From positions 72,744 to 136,743 of the IMG/VR virus record IMGVR_UViG_3300045988_134824: a stretch of DNA of 64,000 nt. One strand, 5' to 3'. This document shows positions 546-39,368 of the stretch, one piece after another; the stretch's first letter is position 1; each line of letters starts with the position of its first letter. The stretch is from a virus. The position numbers and the translations under genes are program-made. The notes under the pieces are model-generated. The model saw only the letters and a list, made by a program, of their open reading frames with translations. It searched no databases and had not been told where the DNA came from.

Positions 546-578
546 ATAAAATTACTCCTAAATTTATTTAAAAAAGTA

Positions 579-607
579 TTGACATAGCAATACTAGTATT
601 GTATAAT
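579..607 (+). promoter_or_regulatory. sigma-70-like promoter P1: TTGACA-17-TATAAT with embedded 14-bp perfect palindrome CAATACTAGTATTG (588-601), candidate operator
   Basis: Consensus hexamers with 17-nt spacer read directly; palindrome sits in the spacer. Confidence 0.55.
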
Positions 608-705
608 TATAACTGTCAAAAGGATAAGACATACAAGTCCAATCCGATTGGTATTATTATATCACGATTTACTCAAAAAAGTAAATCAAAAAATTGAAAA
701 AAGTA

Positions 706-735
706 TCGACATAACAATACTAGTCATGGTATAAT
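706..735 (+). promoter_or_regulatory. Second tandem promoter P2 (TCGACA-18-TATAAT), near-duplicate of P1 with imperfect palindrome CAATACTAGTCATG
   Basis: ~40-nt block aaaaagtat[t/c]gacata[g/a]caatactagt repeated 127 nt apart. Confidence 0.45.
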
Positions 736-779
736 AAAGACAAGTTAAGAGAGAGATAAAAAACAAAAGTCATCTTGAT

Positions 780-1480
780 TGATCGACTAAGTTTTAAAAT
801 CTCAATTAACTTAATACCAGTTAAGATGCTGGTTACAAAAATTAAATAAAAAAAGATGATAAAGGCGTTCAGCCTTAATCAAAAAAGGCTTTCTGCCCAT
901 ATCATCTTTGGGATTTCGGTATCCCTGAACCTAGACAATTCTAGGATACCATATCTTTTCTAAAAAGTCAATTCAGACTTTTTAAATCCCTATTTAAAAC
1001 GGTTAAACACAACCGAATAAAAGAAGAAAAGAATACTTCTATAAAAACTCATGGTAACGCCATAACCCATGTAAAAAAGATGATAGGGTAGAGTGTCGCC
1101 CGATGCAATAAGTGACATTAAGGTTATTTAGCTAATAACCCATTAGTTAGTATGTATGGCTAATGTCGGGAGACACCAGCAACGCAGAACACTATACATT
1201 ACATTGAACGGTATAACTTAAGTGTGTTTTATAAACACTCTGAAAAATCTTTTTTGAATTAAAACATCAAAACCCAAAGATTAACAATGATTCAACCAGT
1301 TATAAAGCTGGTTAAGATTTCATAATTCTTTTATAGGTCGATGATGGGGTACAAATTAACGCCTTGCATGGTATGCACTCGAAAGACAAGCCACTGTCCA
1401 TGACACTGTTATTTGTATCCATTCATGAACTTATAAAAAATCCAGCCTTGAAAAGCTGGTCGTAGTGTTAGGAGGTAAAC
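780..1480 (+). other. ~700-nt non-coding, hairpin-rich leader between switch region and first early gene; candidate structured RNA
   Basis: No ORF >60 aa. Nested stems include aaagatgata...tatcatcttt (853-910), gggat..atccc, cctaga..tctagg, gtgtcgcccga...tcgggagacac (1093-1168) enclosing ggttatt..aataacc. Recurrent ccagNNN..NNNctgg and catgg..ccatg hairpins. Confidence 0.3.
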
Positions 1481-1484
1481 AACT

Positions 1485-1670
1485 ATGAAAAGAATGAAGT
1501 ACTATATTGACTATGTCGATAAAAAAACAAATATGGAACATTCAACTAGTTTTGAAACAAAAATTGAATGTTGGGCTTTTATTCGAAAGAATGAAAAGGA
1601 TATTCATTTAACTAAAAAACCATATACGAGTGATTTTCTTGATTGGTTTTTTAGTGAAGGAATAGCGTAA
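1485..1670 (+). CDS. hypothetical small protein (61 aa)
   Basis: ORF with GGAGG RBS (taggaggtaaacaactATG). Confidence 0.45.
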   Translation: MKRMKYYIDYVDKKTNMEHSTSFETKIECWAFIRKNEKDIHLTKKPYTSDFLDWFFSEGIA

Positions 1671-1778
1671 ACCATAAAGGCACGATCTAAAAAAGATTGT
1701 GTCTTTTTTATTGTAACTATTTAAAATCCCGCTTTTATAGAAATGTAAGTCGGGTATTTCAAGAAAGAAGGTATTATC

Positions 1779-2327
1779 ATGAACACGAACACAAATAAAG
1801 ATGGTTTTACAGCATGGGTTACAAACTTAGGGAAATACAATGAAGGAGAAATCATTGATAAAGCTGTAAATTTCCCACTTGCTGATGAAGATGAAATCAA
1901 GAACATCTTAAAAGAAATCGGTATCAATGCAAAATATGAAGAATACTTTGTTGCTGATTATGATGCAGAGTTTGATACAACGGACTTAGGAGAATACACA
2001 CCACTTTCAAGACTCCAGGAAATTGGAGAACGGTATTCAGAACTTTCAGATGAAGAAAGAACGGTATTTAATGAAATTAGTTCAGAAACATCAACTTTAG
2101 ATGAAGCCTTTGACATTGTAGAAGATGGCAATTATATCATTTATTCAGATTGTGACAGCATGAAAGACGTTGCTTATCGTTATGTTGATGATACTGGACT
2201 ACTCGAAAACATTTCAACGAGTGTATCAAATTATTTTGATTATGAAAAATACGGTCGTGAAATGGATATTCGTGGTTGGTATGTTGATTCTAAAGCATTT
2301 AACGGCTACATTTCAATTTTAAATTAA
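1779..2327 (+). CDS. ardA: ArdA-family antirestriction protein
   Basis: 182 aa; NLGKYNEGEI, IIYSDCDSMKDVAYRYVDDTGLL and NYFDYEKYGREMDIRGWYV blocks match the ArdA family signature; acidic protein. Confidence 0.8.
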   Translation: MNTNTNKDGFTAWVTNLGKYNEGEIIDKAVNFPLADEDEIKNILKEIGINAKYEEYFVADYDAEFDTTDLGEYTPLSRLQEIGERYSELSDEERTVFNEISSETSTLDEAFDIVEDGNYIIYSDCDSMKDVAYRYVDDTGLLENISTSVSNYFDYEKYGREMDIRGWYVDSKAFNGYISILN

Positions 2328-3238: not shown

Positions 3239-3331
3239 ATTGAATATTATAGACAAGTCAAAACACGACTTGTCTATTTTGTTGAACCTATAAAGCAATA
3301 AAGTCCCGTAAAGGGCAGAAAGAAGGATATT

Positions 3332-12376: not shown

Positions 12377-13741
12377 GTGGAATTAATTATGAATCTAAAC
12401 GAAATGGAAATCCCTTGCGATCCAATTTTGGATAAAGCAAAGAGGGATGAGTTAGTGCAGAACACAGAACTTTTAAAACAGGTTACAATCAAGCCGATCC
12501 CGTGGCTTCCTGGACGAGATTATATCACTACAGAACAGGTAGCACGATTCTTTGACGGGGATGTTGATGAAGTCAAGAGGTTGTGTACGAAGTATCGTAA
12601 AGAGTTTTTAGCAGATGGAATGGAAGTTAAGACAGTGCAGGAGATCATTGATGGTCAGAACGCAACAGCGGAAAAACAGAAGGGAAGAATCATGGTAACG
12701 TATCCGAACGGATTGAATATCTCATTCGGTTACAAGGGTGCTAAGGTGTTTACTCTTAAATGCTTGATCAGATTGTCTTTACTAATGGAAACTTCAAAAC
12801 TTGCCGAGAGCGTGAGGTATTATGTTTTCATTAATGATTATATCACGATAGAAGAGCAGAGAGAACAAGAGCAGGTAGAGGCAGGTGTGCAGCTTGTAGA
12901 CACAACGGAAATTTTAGGTAGAAGAATTGACTTATACAGAAGCATTGAAGATCCGTTATTCTTGGCAAGAGATGTTGCAGAATGGATTGATTATAGTAAA
13001 CGTCCTGATGGAAGTTATAAAACAGATATGATGTTACAGGTGATTGATTCAGAGGAAAAATATAAGACCAAAATCTTAACCGCCAATAATGTTGGCGGGT
13101 CAAATTTAGGTCAGATTGATTCTACGGGAAAGACTATTAATCCATTTTGGTTTCTGACAGAAGATGGACTCTATGAAGTGTGTATGCAGTCACGCAAGCC
13201 GATTGCAAAACAGATGAAGAAACAGATCAAAGAATACCTTAGAAACATCCGTAAGACAGGCGGTGCAGTTGACTTTGGAAAAGAATCACAGTTTATTGAA
13301 CACTATTTTCCATCATTCTCTGAAGATGTCAAGCTTGCAATGGTAACGGATCTGAGAACACAAAACAAGGAACTCAAAGAAGAAAATCAGAAGCTACAGA
13401 ATGATAATAAGCTATTAGCAGCGGAAATTTTGACGTGGGATGATCGCAATAAGATGAACGCTGGTATTAGGAAATTAGCTGCGGTTACAGGAACACAGTT
13501 CTCTGTTATGTGGAACGAGCTGTATAAGAACTTACAGTATAAATATCAGATTGATGTTAAGAAACGTGGCAAGAAACCATTTCTACAGTGGATTCAAGAA
13601 CATGAATGGGATAAGGTACTGAAAGTCTTTTGTGCAATGTGTGAAGCTAGAAACCTATCTCCAACAGATATGTTCCAACAGACGGCACCTGTGGAAAATT
13701 TATATGATAATGAAGATGAGGATGATGAAGTATGGAATTAG
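12377..13741 (+). CDS. Bro-N domain phage antirepressor-family protein
   Basis: FLARDVAEWIDYS...FLTEDGLYEVCMQSRKPIAKQMKKQI matches Bro-N signature; 454 aa. Confidence 0.55.
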   Translation: MELIMNLNEMEIPCDPILDKAKRDELVQNTELLKQVTIKPIPWLPGRDYITTEQVARFFDGDVDEVKRLCTKYRKEFLADGMEVKTVQEIIDGQNATAEKQKGRIMVTYPNGLNISFGYKGAKVFTLKCLIRLSLLMETSKLAESVRYYVFINDYITIEEQREQEQVEAGVQLVDTTEILGRRIDLYRSIEDPLFLARDVAEWIDYSKRPDGSYKTDMMLQVIDSEEKYKTKILTANNVGGSNLGQIDSTGKTINPFWFLTEDGLYEVCMQSRKPIAKQMKKQIKEYLRNIRKTGGAVDFGKESQFIEHYFPSFSEDVKLAMVTDLRTQNKELKEENQKLQNDNKLLAAEILTWDDRNKMNAGIRKLAAVTGTQFSVMWNELYKNLQYKYQIDVKKRGKKPFLQWIQEHEWDKVLKVFCAMCEARNLSPTDMFQQTAPVENLYDNEDEDDEVWN

Positions 13742-13977: not shown

Positions 13978-13997
13978 TTCCATATAATAATTTTGGC

Positions 13998-14030
13998 AAA
14001 GAACCGAGTGGAAGGTTCTTTTTATTTTAC
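13998..14030 (+). terminator. rho-independent terminator (AAGAACC-gagtggaa-GGTTCTT + TTTTATTTT); second similar hairpin at 14045-14075
   Basis: stem-loop plus U-run read directly. Confidence 0.6.
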
Positions 14031-14299
14031 GGGAATATTTGACGAGAACCGATTTGGCAGGTCGGTTCTTTGTCAAATTTATTATACACAAACTAATGAT
14101 TCACTAAGCATATAATTGTTAATGGAAAGGGTGTTGATTACATAGAGAGCTAATAGGAATAGAATAGGTTTCGATTAGGATTGGCACACTAATAGTTGGA
14201 ATTAAATGTTGATTTTATTCCTATTGGTTTACGGAATACAGTTATACAAAAATAATGAGTGTAGAGAAAAATAAGACAGTTTAGAAAGGAAGATGAAGA

Positions 14300-15394
14300 A
14301 TGAACCTACAGTTAGTAAAAACGGAAAATTTTAATGATATAGCGTGTGATTTTTATAGTGCCGAGGACGATATTTGGATGACAAGAAAGCAGATCGGAGA
14401 GGCACTGGAATATGGAGATCCACAGAAAGCAATTGATAATTTGCACAATAGATATAGAGATAGACTGGATAAATATTCAGTTACCCTCAAACTGGGGGCT
14501 ACTGATAACAAGAAGTATGACACTACACTCTATAATGAACGTGGCGTGATGGAAATTTGTAGATGGAGCAGACAGCCAAAGGCAAACGCCTTCATGGATT
14601 GGGTTTGGGACGTGATTTCCTCTTATCGTCATGGAAATTTAAGAACAGGAACTCCCGTAACAACAGTGGAGCAATTTCTTACAGAACAGACAGAACTTAT
14701 GAGGCAGATGGAAAGAAACAATGAACGCCTATACAATGTTACTATCAAAGGTTTCAATCAGTTGGCAGACATTGTAAAAGAGATGAAAGCCGAACGGAAA
14801 GAATTATATAAGCAGATCGGTAAACCTACGAAAGATATTCCAGTAGTAGATATTGAAAGTGTTATTGCAGAATACAAACTTAACGAATGGAAATCCAACG
14901 TATATTCTATCATTAATGATATTCTAAAAGAATCTGACGAACTAGGAACCACTACTAGAGATATTCTTAGAGAGGCATACAGGTATCTTACTAACACATA
15001 TGGGATTGTGTGGGAACAGGATCGAAAAGAATACAAAGAGAAGTATAATATTGGAGAAAGAGGTAATGTCCCAACAATTGACCTTTGCTATGATAAATAC
15101 CCTGATCTGCTAGTTAATTCATTGGAAAAACTTCTGCGACAGTTCAGAAAAGAAAATGCACAGCCTGATTGGGAAGAAATGAAGATCAAGATTACCAATT
15201 ATGCTAATCATATTGGAAATAAGTCTAAAGGTGGAACGTCTGTTTATCGGAAAATCTACACTAAGATGACAGAGAATGGAGTTAACTGGGATGAATATGC
15301 TCATGGGTTGTCTAAATCTCAGCTTATTAAAACTAATGCAACTTTGTACAACAGATTTTACGAAGCAGCGGTGGAAATTATTTCAGAAGAATAG
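14300..15394 (+). CDS. Bro-N domain phage antirepressor-family protein (second paralog)
   Basis: N-terminal FNDIACDFYSAEDDIWMTRKQIGEALEYGDPQKAI...YNERGVMEICRWSRQPKANAFMDWVWDVI is a classic Bro-N pattern. Confidence 0.6.
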   Translation: MNLQLVKTENFNDIACDFYSAEDDIWMTRKQIGEALEYGDPQKAIDNLHNRYRDRLDKYSVTLKLGATDNKKYDTTLYNERGVMEICRWSRQPKANAFMDWVWDVISSYRHGNLRTGTPVTTVEQFLTEQTELMRQMERNNERLYNVTIKGFNQLADIVKEMKAERKELYKQIGKPTKDIPVVDIESVIAEYKLNEWKSNVYSIINDILKESDELGTTTRDILREAYRYLTNTYGIVWEQDRKEYKEKYNIGERGNVPTIDLCYDKYPDLLVNSLEKLLRQFRKENAQPDWEEMKIKITNYANHIGNKSKGGTSVYRKIYTKMTENGVNWDEYAHGLSKSQLIKTNATLYNRFYEAAVEIISEE

Positions 15395-19745: not shown

Positions 19746-20696
19746 ATGGCAGCAACACAGTTTGAAGTTATTGAAACAGTAAATAATAATAACGCAGAAG
19801 AATCTGAAACAAAGATTAAAAGACGCAAGGACGGAAATCCTAAATGGACTCGATCTAATAAACAAAAAGGCGTATCATCTTTGGTTTATCCGATTAAAAA
19901 CAAAGAAAAATTTGCAGCCTTTAATGCATATTTTAGAGATCAGATTGATAAATCGTACACGGAGTACAAACGATATGTAGCTGCCAGAAATAATCTTCTG
20001 GTTGCAGTTGGAAACAATACAGCGTATCGTATTTCTGATATTGTTAGACTCAAATGGGGCGATTTATTAGACGATAAGACTCGTAAGCAGGAAAAGAAAA
20101 CAAAGAAATTCAGAACTGTATACTTTAACGATTTGGTAACTGAAGCAGTGGATATTTTCTTTGAAGCTGTTGCAGGAACTAAATATGATGTCAAGATTGA
20201 TGGCAAAGTGCCAATGGATAATTATGTTTTCGGAACATGTAAATCTGGATCAGGGCACATGACAGAAGCAAATGCTTTGGATTTTGTTAAAAAAGGTGCT
20301 AAAGCAGTTGGAATTGAGGACAATATTGGTACACATACACTACGAAAGAACTTTGTGTATTGGACACTTGTTGATCATAAAGATGATCAGAACGTATTGT
20401 ATACACTTATGAGATTATTGAATCATAGTAGCCCTGCAATGACGTTTTTATATGCTACAATTACAGAAGAGGAAACTCATGTGTTATTTGATGATATTGC
20501 TCAGACGTATAAGGATATTATCAGCGGAGCATTTAACGGATTAAAGGAAAATGTTATTAATGTGAGTTATGATAGAGTTATGGAGATTATCAAGTGTGCT
20601 TATGATACTGGCAAGGATGATGCAGATCAAGATGATAGAGTACATGAGGACAATATGCAGGCACTCAAAGAGCTGCTGGAAGGAGTTATTTTATGA
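19746..20696 (+). CDS. tyrosine site-specific recombinase (phage integrase family)
   Basis: catalytic-residue pattern: AYRISDIVRLKWGDL (Arg box I), HTLRKNFV (H-x-x-R), LNHSSPAMTFLYATI (His/Tyr box II). Confidence 0.6.
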   Translation: MAATQFEVIETVNNNNAEESETKIKRRKDGNPKWTRSNKQKGVSSLVYPIKNKEKFAAFNAYFRDQIDKSYTEYKRYVAARNNLLVAVGNNTAYRISDIVRLKWGDLLDDKTRKQEKKTKKFRTVYFNDLVTEAVDIFFEAVAGTKYDVKIDGKVPMDNYVFGTCKSGSGHMTEANALDFVKKGAKAVGIEDNIGTHTLRKNFVYWTLVDHKDDQNVLYTLMRLLNHSSPAMTFLYATITEEETHVLFDDIAQTYKDIISGAFNGLKENVINVSYDRVMEIIKCAYDTGKDDADQDDRVHEDNMQALKELLEGVIL

Positions 20697-22383: not shown

Positions 22384-23412
22384 ATGGAGAATATTATGAA
22401 TAATAAAGAATTGATACAAAATTATATAGATTCTCACGTATCAGAATCACGTCGCCCAACATGGAATTGGTTGTTAGATTCTGATATTGCGGACGACAAT
22501 GAATCTGGGTTAACGTATGCACCAGGTACAATCCAAGAGGCTATATTATCAGATACTAGAGGTAAAAAAACCAAAAGTATGAATTCTATTAAAAAAAGAT
22601 ATGACCAGCTCGTTAAACTATATACTTATGCATATGAACAAAATTACATTAAATATAATCCATTTGTTAATGATAAATTTATAAACTTGCAATTAGCAGT
22701 TGATATATATTTTTCAAATAGAGTTAATGTTAATTATGTTACACCAGATAAAATAAATGCGTTTATTTCGAATCTGATGTCGTGCAATGCATCAGCCGAT
22801 ACCAAATTGAATACTAGATTTCATATTGTGAGTTTATATAATGGGATAAATGGAAAGGAGTTAAGAAATCTAAAATTCTCAGATATTAATCAAAATGATT
22901 TAACAATTTTTGGGAAACCAGTCTCCAAAGATTTTATCGAGACATTGAATGAATATAAATTGAAAATGGGAGATACGAATATATATGATGATTTTGTATT
23001 AATACCACGAAAAAAATGTAATAATATAGAAGAATATCAAGCAGAGCAAAAGAGGATATATAATAATGTGCAGTCTCAATTAGAATTAACTGGTAACACT
23101 TTATCTTATGAGAAATTGACAACCATTGATGTTATTAATTCTGGTTTTATACAATATTTAAAATCTAAAATGGATATCAAGGCAATTGCAGATTTATATT
23201 ATATTAAATCAAAAGAAGGAATCGCACGATCTATAATCGCACGTCAATTTAGTGAAATTGCAATTGAATTTTATTATAATTATTATATATCATATAGATT
23301 AAAAAAGAAACAATTTAGTGATCGTCAAACTGTAATTGGTAAAACTATTGGTTATTTATATAAAGATGAGGACTATAAGAATTATCGTGTACATCAAATT
23401 ATGACAGAATAA
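22384..23412 (+). CDS. hypothetical N/K/Y-rich protein; weak resemblance to integrase N-terminal SAM-like domain, no catalytic motifs seen
   Basis: KRYDQLVKLYTYAYEQNYIKYNPF; strongly AT-skewed composition. Confidence 0.4.
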   Translation: MENIMNNKELIQNYIDSHVSESRRPTWNWLLDSDIADDNESGLTYAPGTIQEAILSDTRGKKTKSMNSIKKRYDQLVKLYTYAYEQNYIKYNPFVNDKFINLQLAVDIYFSNRVNVNYVTPDKINAFISNLMSCNASADTKLNTRFHIVSLYNGINGKELRNLKFSDINQNDLTIFGKPVSKDFIETLNEYKLKMGDTNIYDDFVLIPRKKCNNIEEYQAEQKRIYNNVQSQLELTGNTLSYEKLTTIDVINSGFIQYLKSKMDIKAIADLYYIKSKEGIARSIIARQFSEIAIEFYYNYYISYRLKKKQFSDRQTVIGKTIGYLYKDEDYKNYRVHQIMTE

Positions 23413-37760: not shown

Positions 37761-39368
37761 ATGGCAGCTAAGGATAACACAATGGTAATTACTAGAAAGA
37801 TTGCTTTGATTCCTGTCGTAAGTGAGCGAAAAGAATGGAAGAAAAGAATTAATGCTTTCTTAGAAAAAGATTTTCCAAGGAAAATTGAAGCAAAGAAGAA
37901 GCAGATTAAGAATACAAGCAAGCCAGAAAATAAAGATGGGTACAAGCTGCAACTCGCAGAATTAGAAAAACAATACGAAGATTTTAAAGAAAATAGAATC
38001 GAAGAATATACTCAGAAAATGGTTAACGATTATACATATGGTCTTGTGAGAGATGCAATGGAGAGTGAAGCAAGACGAAAGAATTACATTTTGTCTTACA
38101 TATACACAAAAATGGTACAGGATGGAGTTGGATATATGCCAACATTGAAAGATAAATATACATGGATTAAAGAAAATATTAATGTCGCATATAGACGAAA
38201 AGGAAGTAATAAAGGGAGTATCTTTGATGACGTTGACATTGATAATCCATTAGGTGGATACGGAACATGCTTCTCTCAGATATTAACAAGTAAGATCAAA
38301 GATTTGGTTAAGCAGGGATTGTTAGACGGCAAAGTGTCAATTCCAAGTTTTAAAATTGACTCGCCATTTACAATTGCAAAAGCATATTTTGATCTATATC
38401 ACGAATACGAAGATATAGCAGAATTAAAGAAACGTATTTATGATTCAGATTGCAAACTGTATTGTGGATTAGGTAACAAAGGTATTCCGACCATTGCAAA
38501 TTTCAAAGTAAATATCGGACACAAAGGAAATAGAGACGAGTTAATTTCTACATTGTTAAGAATATTTACTGGAGAATACGAGATTTGTGGAAGTACAATG
38601 CAGATTTCTAAAACAAAAATTATTTTAAATTTATCAATTAGAATTCCTAAAACACAGCTTGAATTAGACGAGGACACTGTAGTTGGTGTCGATCTTGGGG
38701 TTGCAATTCCAGCGGTATGTTCTTTGAATAATAACAAATATAAGAGAGAGTATATTGGTAGTAGTGACGATTTTATTAGAATGAGAACGAAATTACAGCA
38801 CGAGAAACAGCAGTTACAGAAAGCATTAAAGATGTCAAAAGGTGGACATGGAAGAAAAAGAAAGTTGTTGGCATTAGAAAGATGTAAAAAGAAAGAACAT
38901 AACTTTGTTGAAACATACTGCCACAAAGTAAGCAAGAAAGTAGTTGATTTTGCGGTCAAGAATAAAGCGAAATATATCAATGTAGAAAATCTTTCGGGAT
39001 ATGATTCAAGTAAATTCATTTTAAGAAATTGGAGTTTTTACAAACTTCAGCAATACATAGAATATAAAGCTGCGAAATATGGTATTGAAGTTAGAAAAAT
39101 AAATCCATCATTCACATCTCAGGTATGTAGTTTCTGTGGACATTGGGAAGATGGGCAGAGGAAAGATCAAGCAACATTTGTTTGTGGTAATCCTAATTGT
39201 GAAAGCCATAAATTACATATGGTAAATGCAGACTATAATGCATCAAGAAATATTGCAATGTCAACATTATTTACGAGCGATAAATTCCAATTTTGTAAAA
39301 AGACGATGCAAAATGCGGCGGAGTATTACGGTATCCAACTAGATAATGAAGATCAATTAGCAGCGTAA
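37761..39368 (+). CDS. TnpB-like / Cas12-like (type V) RuvC nuclease, 535 aa
   Basis: RuvC-I VGVDLGVAIPAVCS (D ~38691). RuvC-II KYINVENLSG (E ~38984). Zn finger CSFCGH..CGNPNC. RuvC-III HMVNADYNASRNIA (D ~39231). Immediately followed by CRISPR-like arrays. Confidence 0.85.
   Translation: MAAKDNTMVITRKIALIPVVSERKEWKKRINAFLEKDFPRKIEAKKKQIKNTSKPENKDGYKLQLAELEKQYEDFKENRIEEYTQKMVNDYTYGLVRDAMESEARRKNYILSYIYTKMVQDGVGYMPTLKDKYTWIKENINVAYRRKGSNKGSIFDDVDIDNPLGGYGTCFSQILTSKIKDLVKQGLLDGKVSIPSFKIDSPFTIAKAYFDLYHEYEDIAELKKRIYDSDCKLYCGLGNKGIPTIANFKVNIGHKGNRDELISTLLRIFTGEYEICGSTMQISKTKIILNLSIRIPKTQLELDEDTVVGVDLGVAIPAVCSLNNNKYKREYIGSSDDFIRMRTKLQHEKQQLQKALKMSKGGHGRKRKLLALERCKKKEHNFVETYCHKVSKKVVDFAVKNKAKYINVENLSGYDSSKFILRNWSFYKLQQYIEYKAAKYGIEVRKINPSFTSQVCSFCGHWEDGQRKDQATFVCGNPNCESHKLHMVNADYNASRNIAMSTLFTSDKFQFCKKTMQNAAEYYGIQLDNEDQLAA

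Follow-up and report, generated by a model that had tools for sequence, protein, structure and literature searches.

A predicted modular leader RNA downstream of a putative repressor-operator switch in large human-gut phages

In the mobile genetic elements of Firmicutes, cis-acting RNAs of 260-600 nucleotides (nt) that follow the main promoter act as antiterminators (PMC8191782, PMC11658703, PMC13401043). The conjugative system of pLS20 combines a divergent XRE repressor, Rco, with the Pc promoter and a 456-nt leader that contains the cATT zipper attenuator (PMC13401043), and processive antitermination is achieved by conAn1/conAn2, of which the conAn2 RNA is 383 nt long; related conAn2 regions span 260-600 base pairs (bp) and are 30-40% identical (PMC8191782). 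In Tn916, canT is a 452-nt cis-acting RNA antiterminator located downstream of Porf7 (PMC11658703), and this element also carries ardA (PMC8191782, PMC11658703, PMC13401043). Here, we describe a locus at the left end of a 64,000-nt stretch of viral DNA (positions 72,744 to 136,743 of the IMG/VR record IMGVR_UViG_3300045988_134824), which we call the window and in whose coordinates all positions are given. The locus is the early-transcription control region of a ~160-kb phage with a low-GC (Bacillota-type) gut host. It contains a small repressor gene, two tandem promoters, P1 and P2, that point away from it, and a long non-coding leader made up of two structured units, R1 and R2, which lies ahead of the first early genes (Table 1). 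As a kind, large RNA elements behind the main promoter of a mobile element are already known; the leader described here is a structured RNA family of 0.5-0.75 kb that was previously undescribed and is so far confined to one clade of human-gut phages.

Phages also offer precedents. HK022 put, lambda N/nut and Q/qut are elements just downstream of repressor-controlled early promoters that make RNA polymerase terminator-resistant, and the put RNA is ~70 nt long and forms two stem-loops. The leader resembles put and nut in being a phage early-operon element downstream of a repressor-controlled promoter, but it is much longer than put (520 + 190 nt) and no boxA/boxB-like motifs were recognised in it. 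The early region of T7 comprises the tandem promoters A1-A3, a ~400-nt leader, the RNase III site R0.3 and gene 0.3/ocr. Tandem strong host-type promoters, a long untranslated leader that ends in a long hairpin and an anti-restriction gene in first place are common to T7 and the locus studied here, whereas T7 has neither repressor nor operators and its leader is not known for a conserved multi-hairpin domain.

Among the closest systems known is pLS20. Both loci have a divergent XRE-type repressor, a strong main promoter with two operators, a leader of several hundred nucleotides with a long imperfect stem-loop, and a very long co-directional operon punctuated by terminators, and both carry an RNA element in the 260-600-nt range, which in pLS20, the layout of which we checked, acts after initiation (PMC13401043, PMC8191782). 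In contrast to the plasmid pLS20, the element studied here is a phage, its repressor has 84 instead of 161 amino acids and is unrelated beyond the helix-turn-helix (HTH) domain, the structured RNA follows the promoter directly and not, as for conAn2, the first gene, and the overlap between zipper and terminator seen in cATT does not occur, as judged from the relative L002. Compared by description and not by sequence, canT of Tn916 is likewise a large RNA right after the main promoter, 5' of a strong terminator and an ardA operon, and no dedicated protein partner is known for either RNA (PMC11658703); unlike R1, canT is not known in divergent allelic types. The likeness to pLS20 and the antiterminator families is one of function and architecture, not of membership.

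Table 1. Features of the early control region and the first early genes (window coordinates)
Feature	Position	Strand	Description
XRE/Cro-CI-type HTH repressor gene	291-545	minus	84 amino acids, HTH domain only; Pfam and PHROG repressor families
Early promoter P1	579-607	plus	TTGACA-17-TATAAT, 12/12 consensus match
Operator O1	588-601		CAATACTAGTATTG, perfect 14-bp palindrome in P1 spacer
Candidate leftward repressor promoter 1	619 to 590	minus	TTGACA-18-TAGTAT, overlaps O1 (consensus scan)
Candidate leftward repressor promoter 2	685 to 656	minus	TTTACT-18-TATAAT, between P1 and P2
Early promoter P2	706-735	plus	TCGACA-18-TATAAT, 11/12, TG before -10
Operator O2	715-728		CAATACTAGTCATG, imperfect palindrome (two mismatches to O1) in P2 spacer
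R1	~740-1260	plus	~520-nt structured unit in the window, W type of four
R1 5' closing helix	744-748 with 806-810		GUUAA with UUAAC
R1 hairpin	818-835
R1 central domain	845-986		Includes hairpins Hz (918-950) and H5 (962-983)
R1 3' hairpin	1221-1241		U-run at 1250-1255
R2	1245-1440	plus	~190 nt, five helices (RNAalifold)
R2 5' hairpin domain	1277-1332
R2 long imperfect hairpin	1329-1442		~40 bp, -42.9 kcal/mol; 3' two-thirds of R2
Small hairpin CCAGC..GCUGG	1443-1459	plus	5' of first open reading frame (ORF)
Shine-Dalgarno sequence AGGAGG	1470-1475	plus	5' of first ORF
61-amino-acid ORF cassette	1485-1670	plus	Optional; no family match; absent or replaced in many relatives
Intrinsic terminator	1676-1712	plus	Strong, 13-bp stem and U-run; 5' end of ArdA cassette
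ArdA anti-restriction gene	1779-2327	plus	Pfam ArdA E 5e-30, PHROG 2059; first recognisable early/anti-defence gene

The 749-nt stretch that follows P2 (736-1484) holds no ORF longer than 42 amino acids, none of which is kept in relatives. It folds with a minimum free energy of -200.5 kcal/mol; relative to dinucleotide shuffles, z is -7.8 for the plus and -7.2 for the minus strand, and the fold is more stable than that of any of the 169 other 749-nt segments of the phage (mean -155.7, sd 13.8). Stems of the CCAG..CTGG kind are found at 818-835, 1296-1313 and 1443-1459 and CATGG..CCATG stems at 1031-1052 and 1368-1404. A reading made from the window alone, without database searches (the sequence-only reading), had pointed to ~0.7 kb of hairpin-rich sequence without an ORF and to both stem families, and all of this held. 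It had also called the stretch unusually long for a phage leader, which is true only in a relative sense, as leaders or cis-acting RNAs of 380-450 nt follow the main promoters of pLS20 and Tn916 (PMC13401043, PMC8191782, PMC11658703). The leader does not form one block: we find two modular units, followed by exchangeable gene cassettes, and BLAST maps show the region to be a mosaic of exchangeable blocks. A structured feature of similar length and without a conserved ORF lies directly 3' of P2 in every relative found.

R1 measures ~520-610 nt across its types. It begins at the P2 transcription start with the conserved sequence ACAAGTTAAGAG (window 740). Its end, 460-520 nt further on, consists of the motif ACATTGAACGG (1201-1211), which is conserved and single-stranded, followed by a hairpin and then a U-run. 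We distinguish four types (W, A, C and E) among the 38 distinct copies, with 91-97% identity within and 48-66% between types, and there is recombination of sub-modules between types, for instance of the apical portion of the 5' hairpin. A global MAFFT alignment of all types analysed with RNAalifold recovered the 5' closing helix only, MAFFT misregistering the helices between types; the structure was instead assessed with per-type folds, per-hairpin folds and a covariance model. Per-type consensus and per-sequence folds gave the same order of hairpins with different sequences: a 5' hairpin with an invariant GUUAA/UUAAC closing helix and a GA/AA internal loop, followed by an A-rich linker and two further hairpins, then by one with a conserved ..ACAAU loop and lastly by one with a conserved GUCAA in its 5' strand and a co-varying 3' strand. 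The stem below the ..ACAAU loop reads GGUAUCC/GGAUACC in W, AUACUUAG/CUAAGUAU in A and GAUAUAC.UUUA/UAAAGUAUAUC in C and E. The covariance model, built from ten A-type central-domain sequences only (159 positions, 42 pairs), matched E-type copies (E ~1e-4 to 2e-3), W-type copies including the one in the window (E 0.002-0.14) and one C-type copy (E 0.4), in each case at the homologous position. In the model-fitted alignment, 89.4% of the central-domain cells are paired, compared to 38-46% in slid controls, 32 of the 42 pairs are changed on both sides (7-12 in controls), and the covariation score is 0.47 (0.07-0.12 in controls); these figures lean towards structure, the alignment being fitted to the model, and the independent folds agree with them.

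In R2, with 19 distinct sequences and 48 pairs (912 cells), 99.2% of the cells are paired, compared to 34-46% in slid controls, and six pairs show compensatory changes (0-2 in slid controls), such as A-U/U-A/G-C at one position and G-U versus C-G at another. The sequence-only reading had proposed a structured RNA, to be checked for covariation and conservation, and these changes in R2 and in the R1 central domain, together with the presence of the leader in every relative found, bear it out. There are 49 G-U cells, spread over nine pair positions, and 3 A-C cells, each in a single sequence, and the alifold energy is -38.7 kcal/mol on the plus and -20.9 kcal/mol on the minus strand. From this tolerance of G-U and from the strand energies we conclude that R2 is a plus-strand RNA element. 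R2 is common to W, C and some A and E loci, and most A-type loci have a different block of similar size in its place. In L024, a distant relative, an A-type R1 plus R2 block (440-1351) is ~90-96% identical to the clade of the window, with R2 at 96%, while the ArdA protein is only 53% identical; either the RNA modules are under stronger constraint than the neighbouring gene or they were exchanged recently. Taking R1 and R2 together, we propose with good confidence that P1 and P2 probably transcribe a modular, highly structured plus-strand leader.

The same data speak to the possibility that the hairpins act as DNA, for example as an origin, a packaging or injection signal or cruciform binding sites, or that they encode antisense RNAs on the minus strand. 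Such roles would fit with the nearly equal folding of both strands, with four minus-strand terminator-like hairpins followed by T-runs (876, 1015, 1315 and 1459, compared to 0.6 expected for both strands together), and with the position of the locus next to a ~3-kb non-coding, skew-switching region in relatives. However, R2 helices are kept by way of G-U pairs, which on the other strand or in DNA are A-C mismatches, and compensatory changes preserve helices while the sequences differ, which is needless for DNA-binding sites. In addition, no iterons or tandem repeats were found in the region, the minus-strand T-runs correspond to the conserved A-rich linkers of the plus-strand RNA, and no leftward genes lie downstream. 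We therefore give these roles very little credence. An Frpo-like single-stranded DNA promoter as in plasmid leading regions, raised because of ArdA, was set aside since the PHROG content is that of a double-stranded DNA phage and R2 tolerates G-U pairs.

Searches of Rfam 15 at the gathering score gave no match in the window, L001, L003 and L010, and E-value mode on W-, A- and C-type leaders returned noise only (E of at least 1.3), so that the Rfam/Infernal scan proposed in the sequence-only reading yielded no family. To find more copies, the R1 3' motif was used as query against IMG/VR, a metagenome scan and GTDB genomes. It occurs at 35 true loci in IMG/VR, plus two chance matches in coding DNA (L063, L064), and on 15 contigs of the metagenome scan, all human-gut, and it had no match in 185,579 species-representative GTDB genomes, where no prophage copy was thus seen; none of these searches added a further R1 type. 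The window itself has no further copies of the R1 5' or 3' motif. The close relatives, all uncultured, are IMG/VR and human-gut metagenome contigs with lengths of 80-166 kb, and megablast and blastn found no DNA match to the region in INPHARED phages or PLSDB plasmids, that is, no cultured relative that carries it. Distant ArdA loci (L025 to L029) have ordinary coding surroundings and no comparable leader.

Two small features within R1 are recorded here as observations. A mini-ORF of seven codons (829-852, AUG CUG GUU ACA AAA AUU AAA UAA) occupies the same place in types W, A2, C and E and is absent in subtype A1; its peptides differ between types, and no ORF is kept across R1 types as would be expected for a conserved small ORF. 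Furthermore, the direct repeat AAAAAAGATGATA (849-861 and 1073-1085) is complementary in both copies to the single TATCATCTTT (900-909), and the resulting local and long-range pairings in the W-type RNA are mutually exclusive.

What might the leader do? It lies 3' of the main promoter and 5' of the first terminators in a long operon, a position that fits the antiterminator class. Besides the strong terminator in front of ArdA, after which the consensus scan found no promoter-like site ahead of the gene, at least five more intergenic plus-strand terminators follow within the first 20 kb, including those at 3249, 8363, 13998 and 19293, and the gene array that they interrupt has few sigma-70-type promoters. 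With terminators between P1/P2 and the early genes, read-through would be needed, and the structured leader is the obvious candidate for enabling or modulating it. We tentatively propose, at somewhat less than an even chance, that the leader is an RNA-based processive antitermination or attenuation module that acts in cis. To this end, the leader would act on the transcribing RNA polymerase or on the nascent transcript, and polymerases starting at P1 and P2 would read through the R1 terminator, the terminator before ArdA and others in the 60-kb co-directional early array; R2 could additionally serve as a processing or stabilising hairpin. If this holds true, the large RNA antiterminators of Gram-positive conjugative elements, conAn2 and canT, would be extended to phages, without a protein partner. 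The leader is the first part of this large phage to be transcribed and precedes an anti-restriction locus, and as promoters, terminators and element borders are now mapped, either outcome, action in cis or in trans, is testable with simple reporter constructs.

Several points weigh against a cis-acting antiterminator or attenuator. The region shows no similarity to the pLS20 leader or conAn2, neither in sequence (blastn matches of at most 23 nt, E of at least 0.07) nor by model (the R1 model finds nothing in pLS20), and the window holds no ConAn1 homologue (best tblastn E for pLS20 ConAn1, 2.7); for conAn2 this test is a weak one, its regions being only 30-40% identical among themselves. The ROOL, GOLLD, riboswitch, T-box, c4 and 6S models of Rfam 15 do not match the leader either. 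R1 alleles are only 48-66% identical, and an element that contacts RNA polymerase has no obvious need to diversify, an objection that is answered in part by the similarly low identity of the conAn2 regions (PMC8191782). The strand signal of R1 is weaker than that of R2, with minimum free and alifold energies alike on both strands and 17 G-U versus 18 A-C cells in the model-fitted alignment. The A-C cells sit at helices that differ in register between types, and where helices align cleanly, in the 5' helix, H5 and the 3' hairpin, G-U occurs without A-C; the orientation of P1 and P2 and the plus-strand terminator are further arguments for reading R1 on the plus strand. In the W type of the window, the R1 3' hairpin reaches just -5.2 kcal/mol (z +0.7), with a mismatch in the stem and the U-run 8 nt away. 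Lastly, the terminators may be no more than leaky, or genes further downstream may be served by phage-specific promoters to which the scan is blind.

The A and E types have a canonical intrinsic terminator as their R1 3' hairpin (GGGUGUCAAUUUUUGAUACUC, then UGUUUUUUUG, -12.3 kcal/mol), and a defined RNA of 0.5-0.6 kb would be expected to accumulate there. One might speculate that R1, with or without R2, exists as a discrete non-coding RNA that is abundant, early and trans-acting and is the first product on infection. It could serve as a decoy for, or inhibitor of, a host defence or another host factor, or as an ornate structural or assembly RNA of ROOL/GOLLD size. This would be in line with the two consensus promoters that drive R1, with its place at the head of an anti-defence locus made up of ArdA and swappable cassettes, with its strongly divergent and recombining alleles, which are typical of anti-defence loci, and with its better conservation than the adjoining protein gene in L024. 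In size and A-rich linkers R1 also resembles large phage-associated RNAs (PMC12286853, PMC5737381). ROOL and GOLLD in particular are phage-borne multi-hairpin RNAs of 500-600 nt with A-rich linkers (PMC5737381, PMC12286853), but the leader does not match their Rfam models up to E 10, nor those of other Rfam families, and it is part of an mRNA leader and not tRNA-associated. In the W and C types, R1 is not set apart from R2 and the mRNA by a canonical terminator, neither a target nor a partner is identifiable, and the element is present in a single copy per genome, always fused to the early operon. On balance, we regard a trans-acting RNA as a serious rival, albeit a somewhat unlikely one, and the decoy and antisense roles floated in the sequence-only reading found no support. 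Its boldest form, namely that R1 represents a new class of large modular phage RNA that is released early and acts in trans, as decoy or inhibitor, on a host nucleic-acid-sensing defence or a host RNA-binding factor, or self-assembles into an 'ornate' RNA, with four alleles that reflect an arms race like that of the neighbouring anti-restriction cassettes, appears unlikely. Should the RNA act in trans, however, it would be a new early phage RNA effector, and of greater interest.

The long hairpin of R2, an imperfect duplex of ~40 bp directly 5' of the first ribosome-binding site, raises the further possibility that the leader is mainly a device for RNA processing or stability. R2 could be an RNase III-type site that parts the leader from the mRNA, like R0.3 of T7 upstream of gene 0.3, and the 5' hairpins together with an SD-like AAAGGAG box could shield the early mRNA from 5' exonuclease, like the STAB-SD and SP82-type stabilisers of Bacillus. 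The base of R2 is lengthened by complementary flanks in all three variants of the cassette junction (read from the sequences and from the L002 fold), the AAAGGAG box is present without an ORF in the A, C and E types of R1, and tandem strong promoters, a long leader and an anti-restriction gene make up the early layout of T7. Nevertheless, 500 nt of R1 with conserved loops and a single-stranded 3' motif would remain without explanation, the SD-like box is missing in the W type and RNase III specificity is not predictable from sequence, and we consider such a device, as the main role, rather unlikely, though likewise a serious rival.

The antiterminator reading is favoured over a closer copy of pLS20 as well, in which R2 and a downstream terminator would form a zipper-type attenuator of the cATT kind. 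The parts seem to be at hand: a weak upstream stem-loop (1287-1324), the long imperfect stem, and a downstream terminator in relatives without the 61-amino-acid ORF, such as L002. Moreover, AUUCUU on the 5' side of the long stem, which can also pair in the upstream hairpin, is complementary to the 3' flank AAGAAU, so that the stem can 'zip' further (PMC13401043). In L002, however, this AUUCUU/AAGAAU extension stays 12 nt short of the terminator, and the latter still forms in both the minimum-free-energy and centroid folds, and hence terminator and antiterminator do not overlap; in the window, R2 is followed by an ORF and not by a terminator. A zipper-type attenuator is therefore very unlikely.

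The repressor-operator part of the locus is of an ordinary, familiar kind and teaches little that is new, the leader being the more useful part, yet it offers a clean case of immunity-type diversification in uncultured gut phages. The sequence-only reading had described a divergent XRE repressor, tandem near-identical promoter blocks with a perfect 14-bp palindrome and a second operator, and a genetic switch; the features themselves are confirmed, and the switch reading is well supported. The repressor matches HTH_26 (1e-10), HTH_37 (6e-9) and HTH_3 (2e-7) of Pfam and its gene has a minus-strand Shine-Dalgarno sequence, AGGAGT (554-559). The two promoter blocks (566-597 and 693-724) form a direct repeat with 91% identity, P1 and P2 are the two top sigma-70-type matches of a consensus scan within the first 20 kb, and the -35 element of P2 is TTGACA in relatives. 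The centres of O1 and O2 are 127 bp apart, or ~12 helical turns, and no other operator copy with up to two mismatches occurs in promoter context in the whole 64 kb. As the window contains eight perfect 14-bp palindromes, such a palindrome is not significant alone; what gives the operators significance is their position, their duplication and the comparative data.

For this comparison, 32 related loci were oriented and the repressor N-termini tabulated against the promoter spacers. Five repressor families were found, each with its own palindrome in a one-to-one relationship: MYNIVKNQ.. with CAATAC(T/A)AGTATTG, MIINTQDD.. with CCTAACAAATATGTTA, MIVKNQ(S/N)D.. with ATATCAAATATGATAT, MIYIDNTQ.. 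with ATCAAGTAAA(A/T)AC(T/A)TGAT, and MVVNNIND../..KINNINDL.. with CATAAAAG(T/A)TATG. Within each repressor type, P1 and P2 have palindromes of one and the same type. Three loci, L038, L040 and L042, encode two tandem repressors, one of the MYNIVKNQ type and one of the MIYIDNTQ type (first 700 nt after the left anchor), and only in these does the P1 operator belong to the first type and the P2 operator to the second. We take them to be natural double-immunity phages, and judged from sequence such dual-repressor hybrids are the nearest thing to a specificity experiment that comparative data permit. It is very likely that the repressor binds its allele-specific palindrome between the -35 and -10 elements of P1 and P2, and its binding to O1 and O2 would shut off rightward early transcription. 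Two of the types combine a perfect palindrome at P1 with a conserved imperfect one at P2, which suggests graded affinity. The type of R1 is independent of the repressor type, and R1 is thus not an immunity determinant.

O1 overlaps a leftward promoter-like site, which makes autoregulation likely, and the bound repressor probably also controls its own gene. The second leftward candidate has an extended -10 element, TGATATAAT, at 664-656, and the leftward promoter motif ATTATATCAC is kept in W- and D-type relatives. The arrangement recalls lambdoid CI/Cro switches, which also have a small HTH repressor, palindromic operators that overlap divergent promoters, and several matched repressor/operator immunity types exchanged between phages in a mosaic manner. 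Unlike the tripartite lambdoid OR and OL, it has two tandem rightward promoters with one operator each, and unlike CI, the repressor consists of an HTH domain without S24 peptidase; a second, Cro-like regulator was not identified where the rightward transcript starts. Only HTH families matched the 84-amino-acid protein in Pfam, with neither an S24 (autocleavage) nor a sensor domain, and release is therefore more likely to occur via Ant/BRO-type anti-repressors encoded downstream or by dilution on infection. Two ORFs of the Ant/BRO type (12377-13741 and 14300-15394, Pfam/PHROG) suggest themselves as candidate anti-repressors. Between them lies an inverted repeat (13983-14086) with 25-nt arms that are 92% complementary and 54 nt apart, and which overlaps a terminator-like site on the plus strand.

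Downstream of R2, cassettes are swapped at a fixed junction, ..GAACTTATA (window 1430-1780 and relatives). The variants encode ORFs of 61, 84, 112 or 229/260 amino acids, or consist of the terminator and ArdA directly, and each has a strong intrinsic terminator before or after it; several relatives lack ArdA and the next gene. The terminator upstream of ArdA is part of the ArdA cassette in all relatives, whose BLAST blocks begin at 1667-1697, and in L002 it follows R2 directly. The locus has the behaviour of a site for anti-defence cassettes.

The window as a whole encodes ~80 ORFs of at least 100 amino acids, nearly all on the plus strand. PHROG and Pfam matches are phage-like and comprise, in addition to ArdA and the Ant/BRO anti-repressors, a Sak4-like protein, a DnaB-like helicase, DNA polymerase III alpha, two tyrosine recombinases and a TnpB-like ORF, and at the protein level the nearest neighbours are large Bacillota phages. 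The two tyrosine-recombinase (integrase-like) ORFs are located at 19746-20696 and 22384-23412, yet the leader motif is found in 0 of 185,579 species-representative bacterial genomes, and lysogeny as an integrated prophage is for this reason unproven.

The control region forms the left border of the co-directional gene array and directly follows a G-poor tract (1-290) with a GC skew of -0.5, which is kept at 75-95% in all relatives. There, this tract forms the right-hand edge of a ~3-kb stretch that lacks convincing ORFs (for example, 1500-4400 in L003), in which strand composition flips from G/T-rich to C/A-rich. Candidate roles for the tract or the whole stretch are those of a genome end, an origin or a Rho-type insulator. 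Further into the window, an Rfam tRNA match (33626-33764, plus strand, 43.8 bits) has a 76-nt insertion in the anticodon-arm region, and ARAGORN predicts no tRNA in the window; a hairpin with 27-nt arms (33549-33620) lies just 5' of this match. The TnpB/Cas12f-like ORF, with OrfB_IS605 and TNB domains, is located at 37761-39368, within the phage early region.

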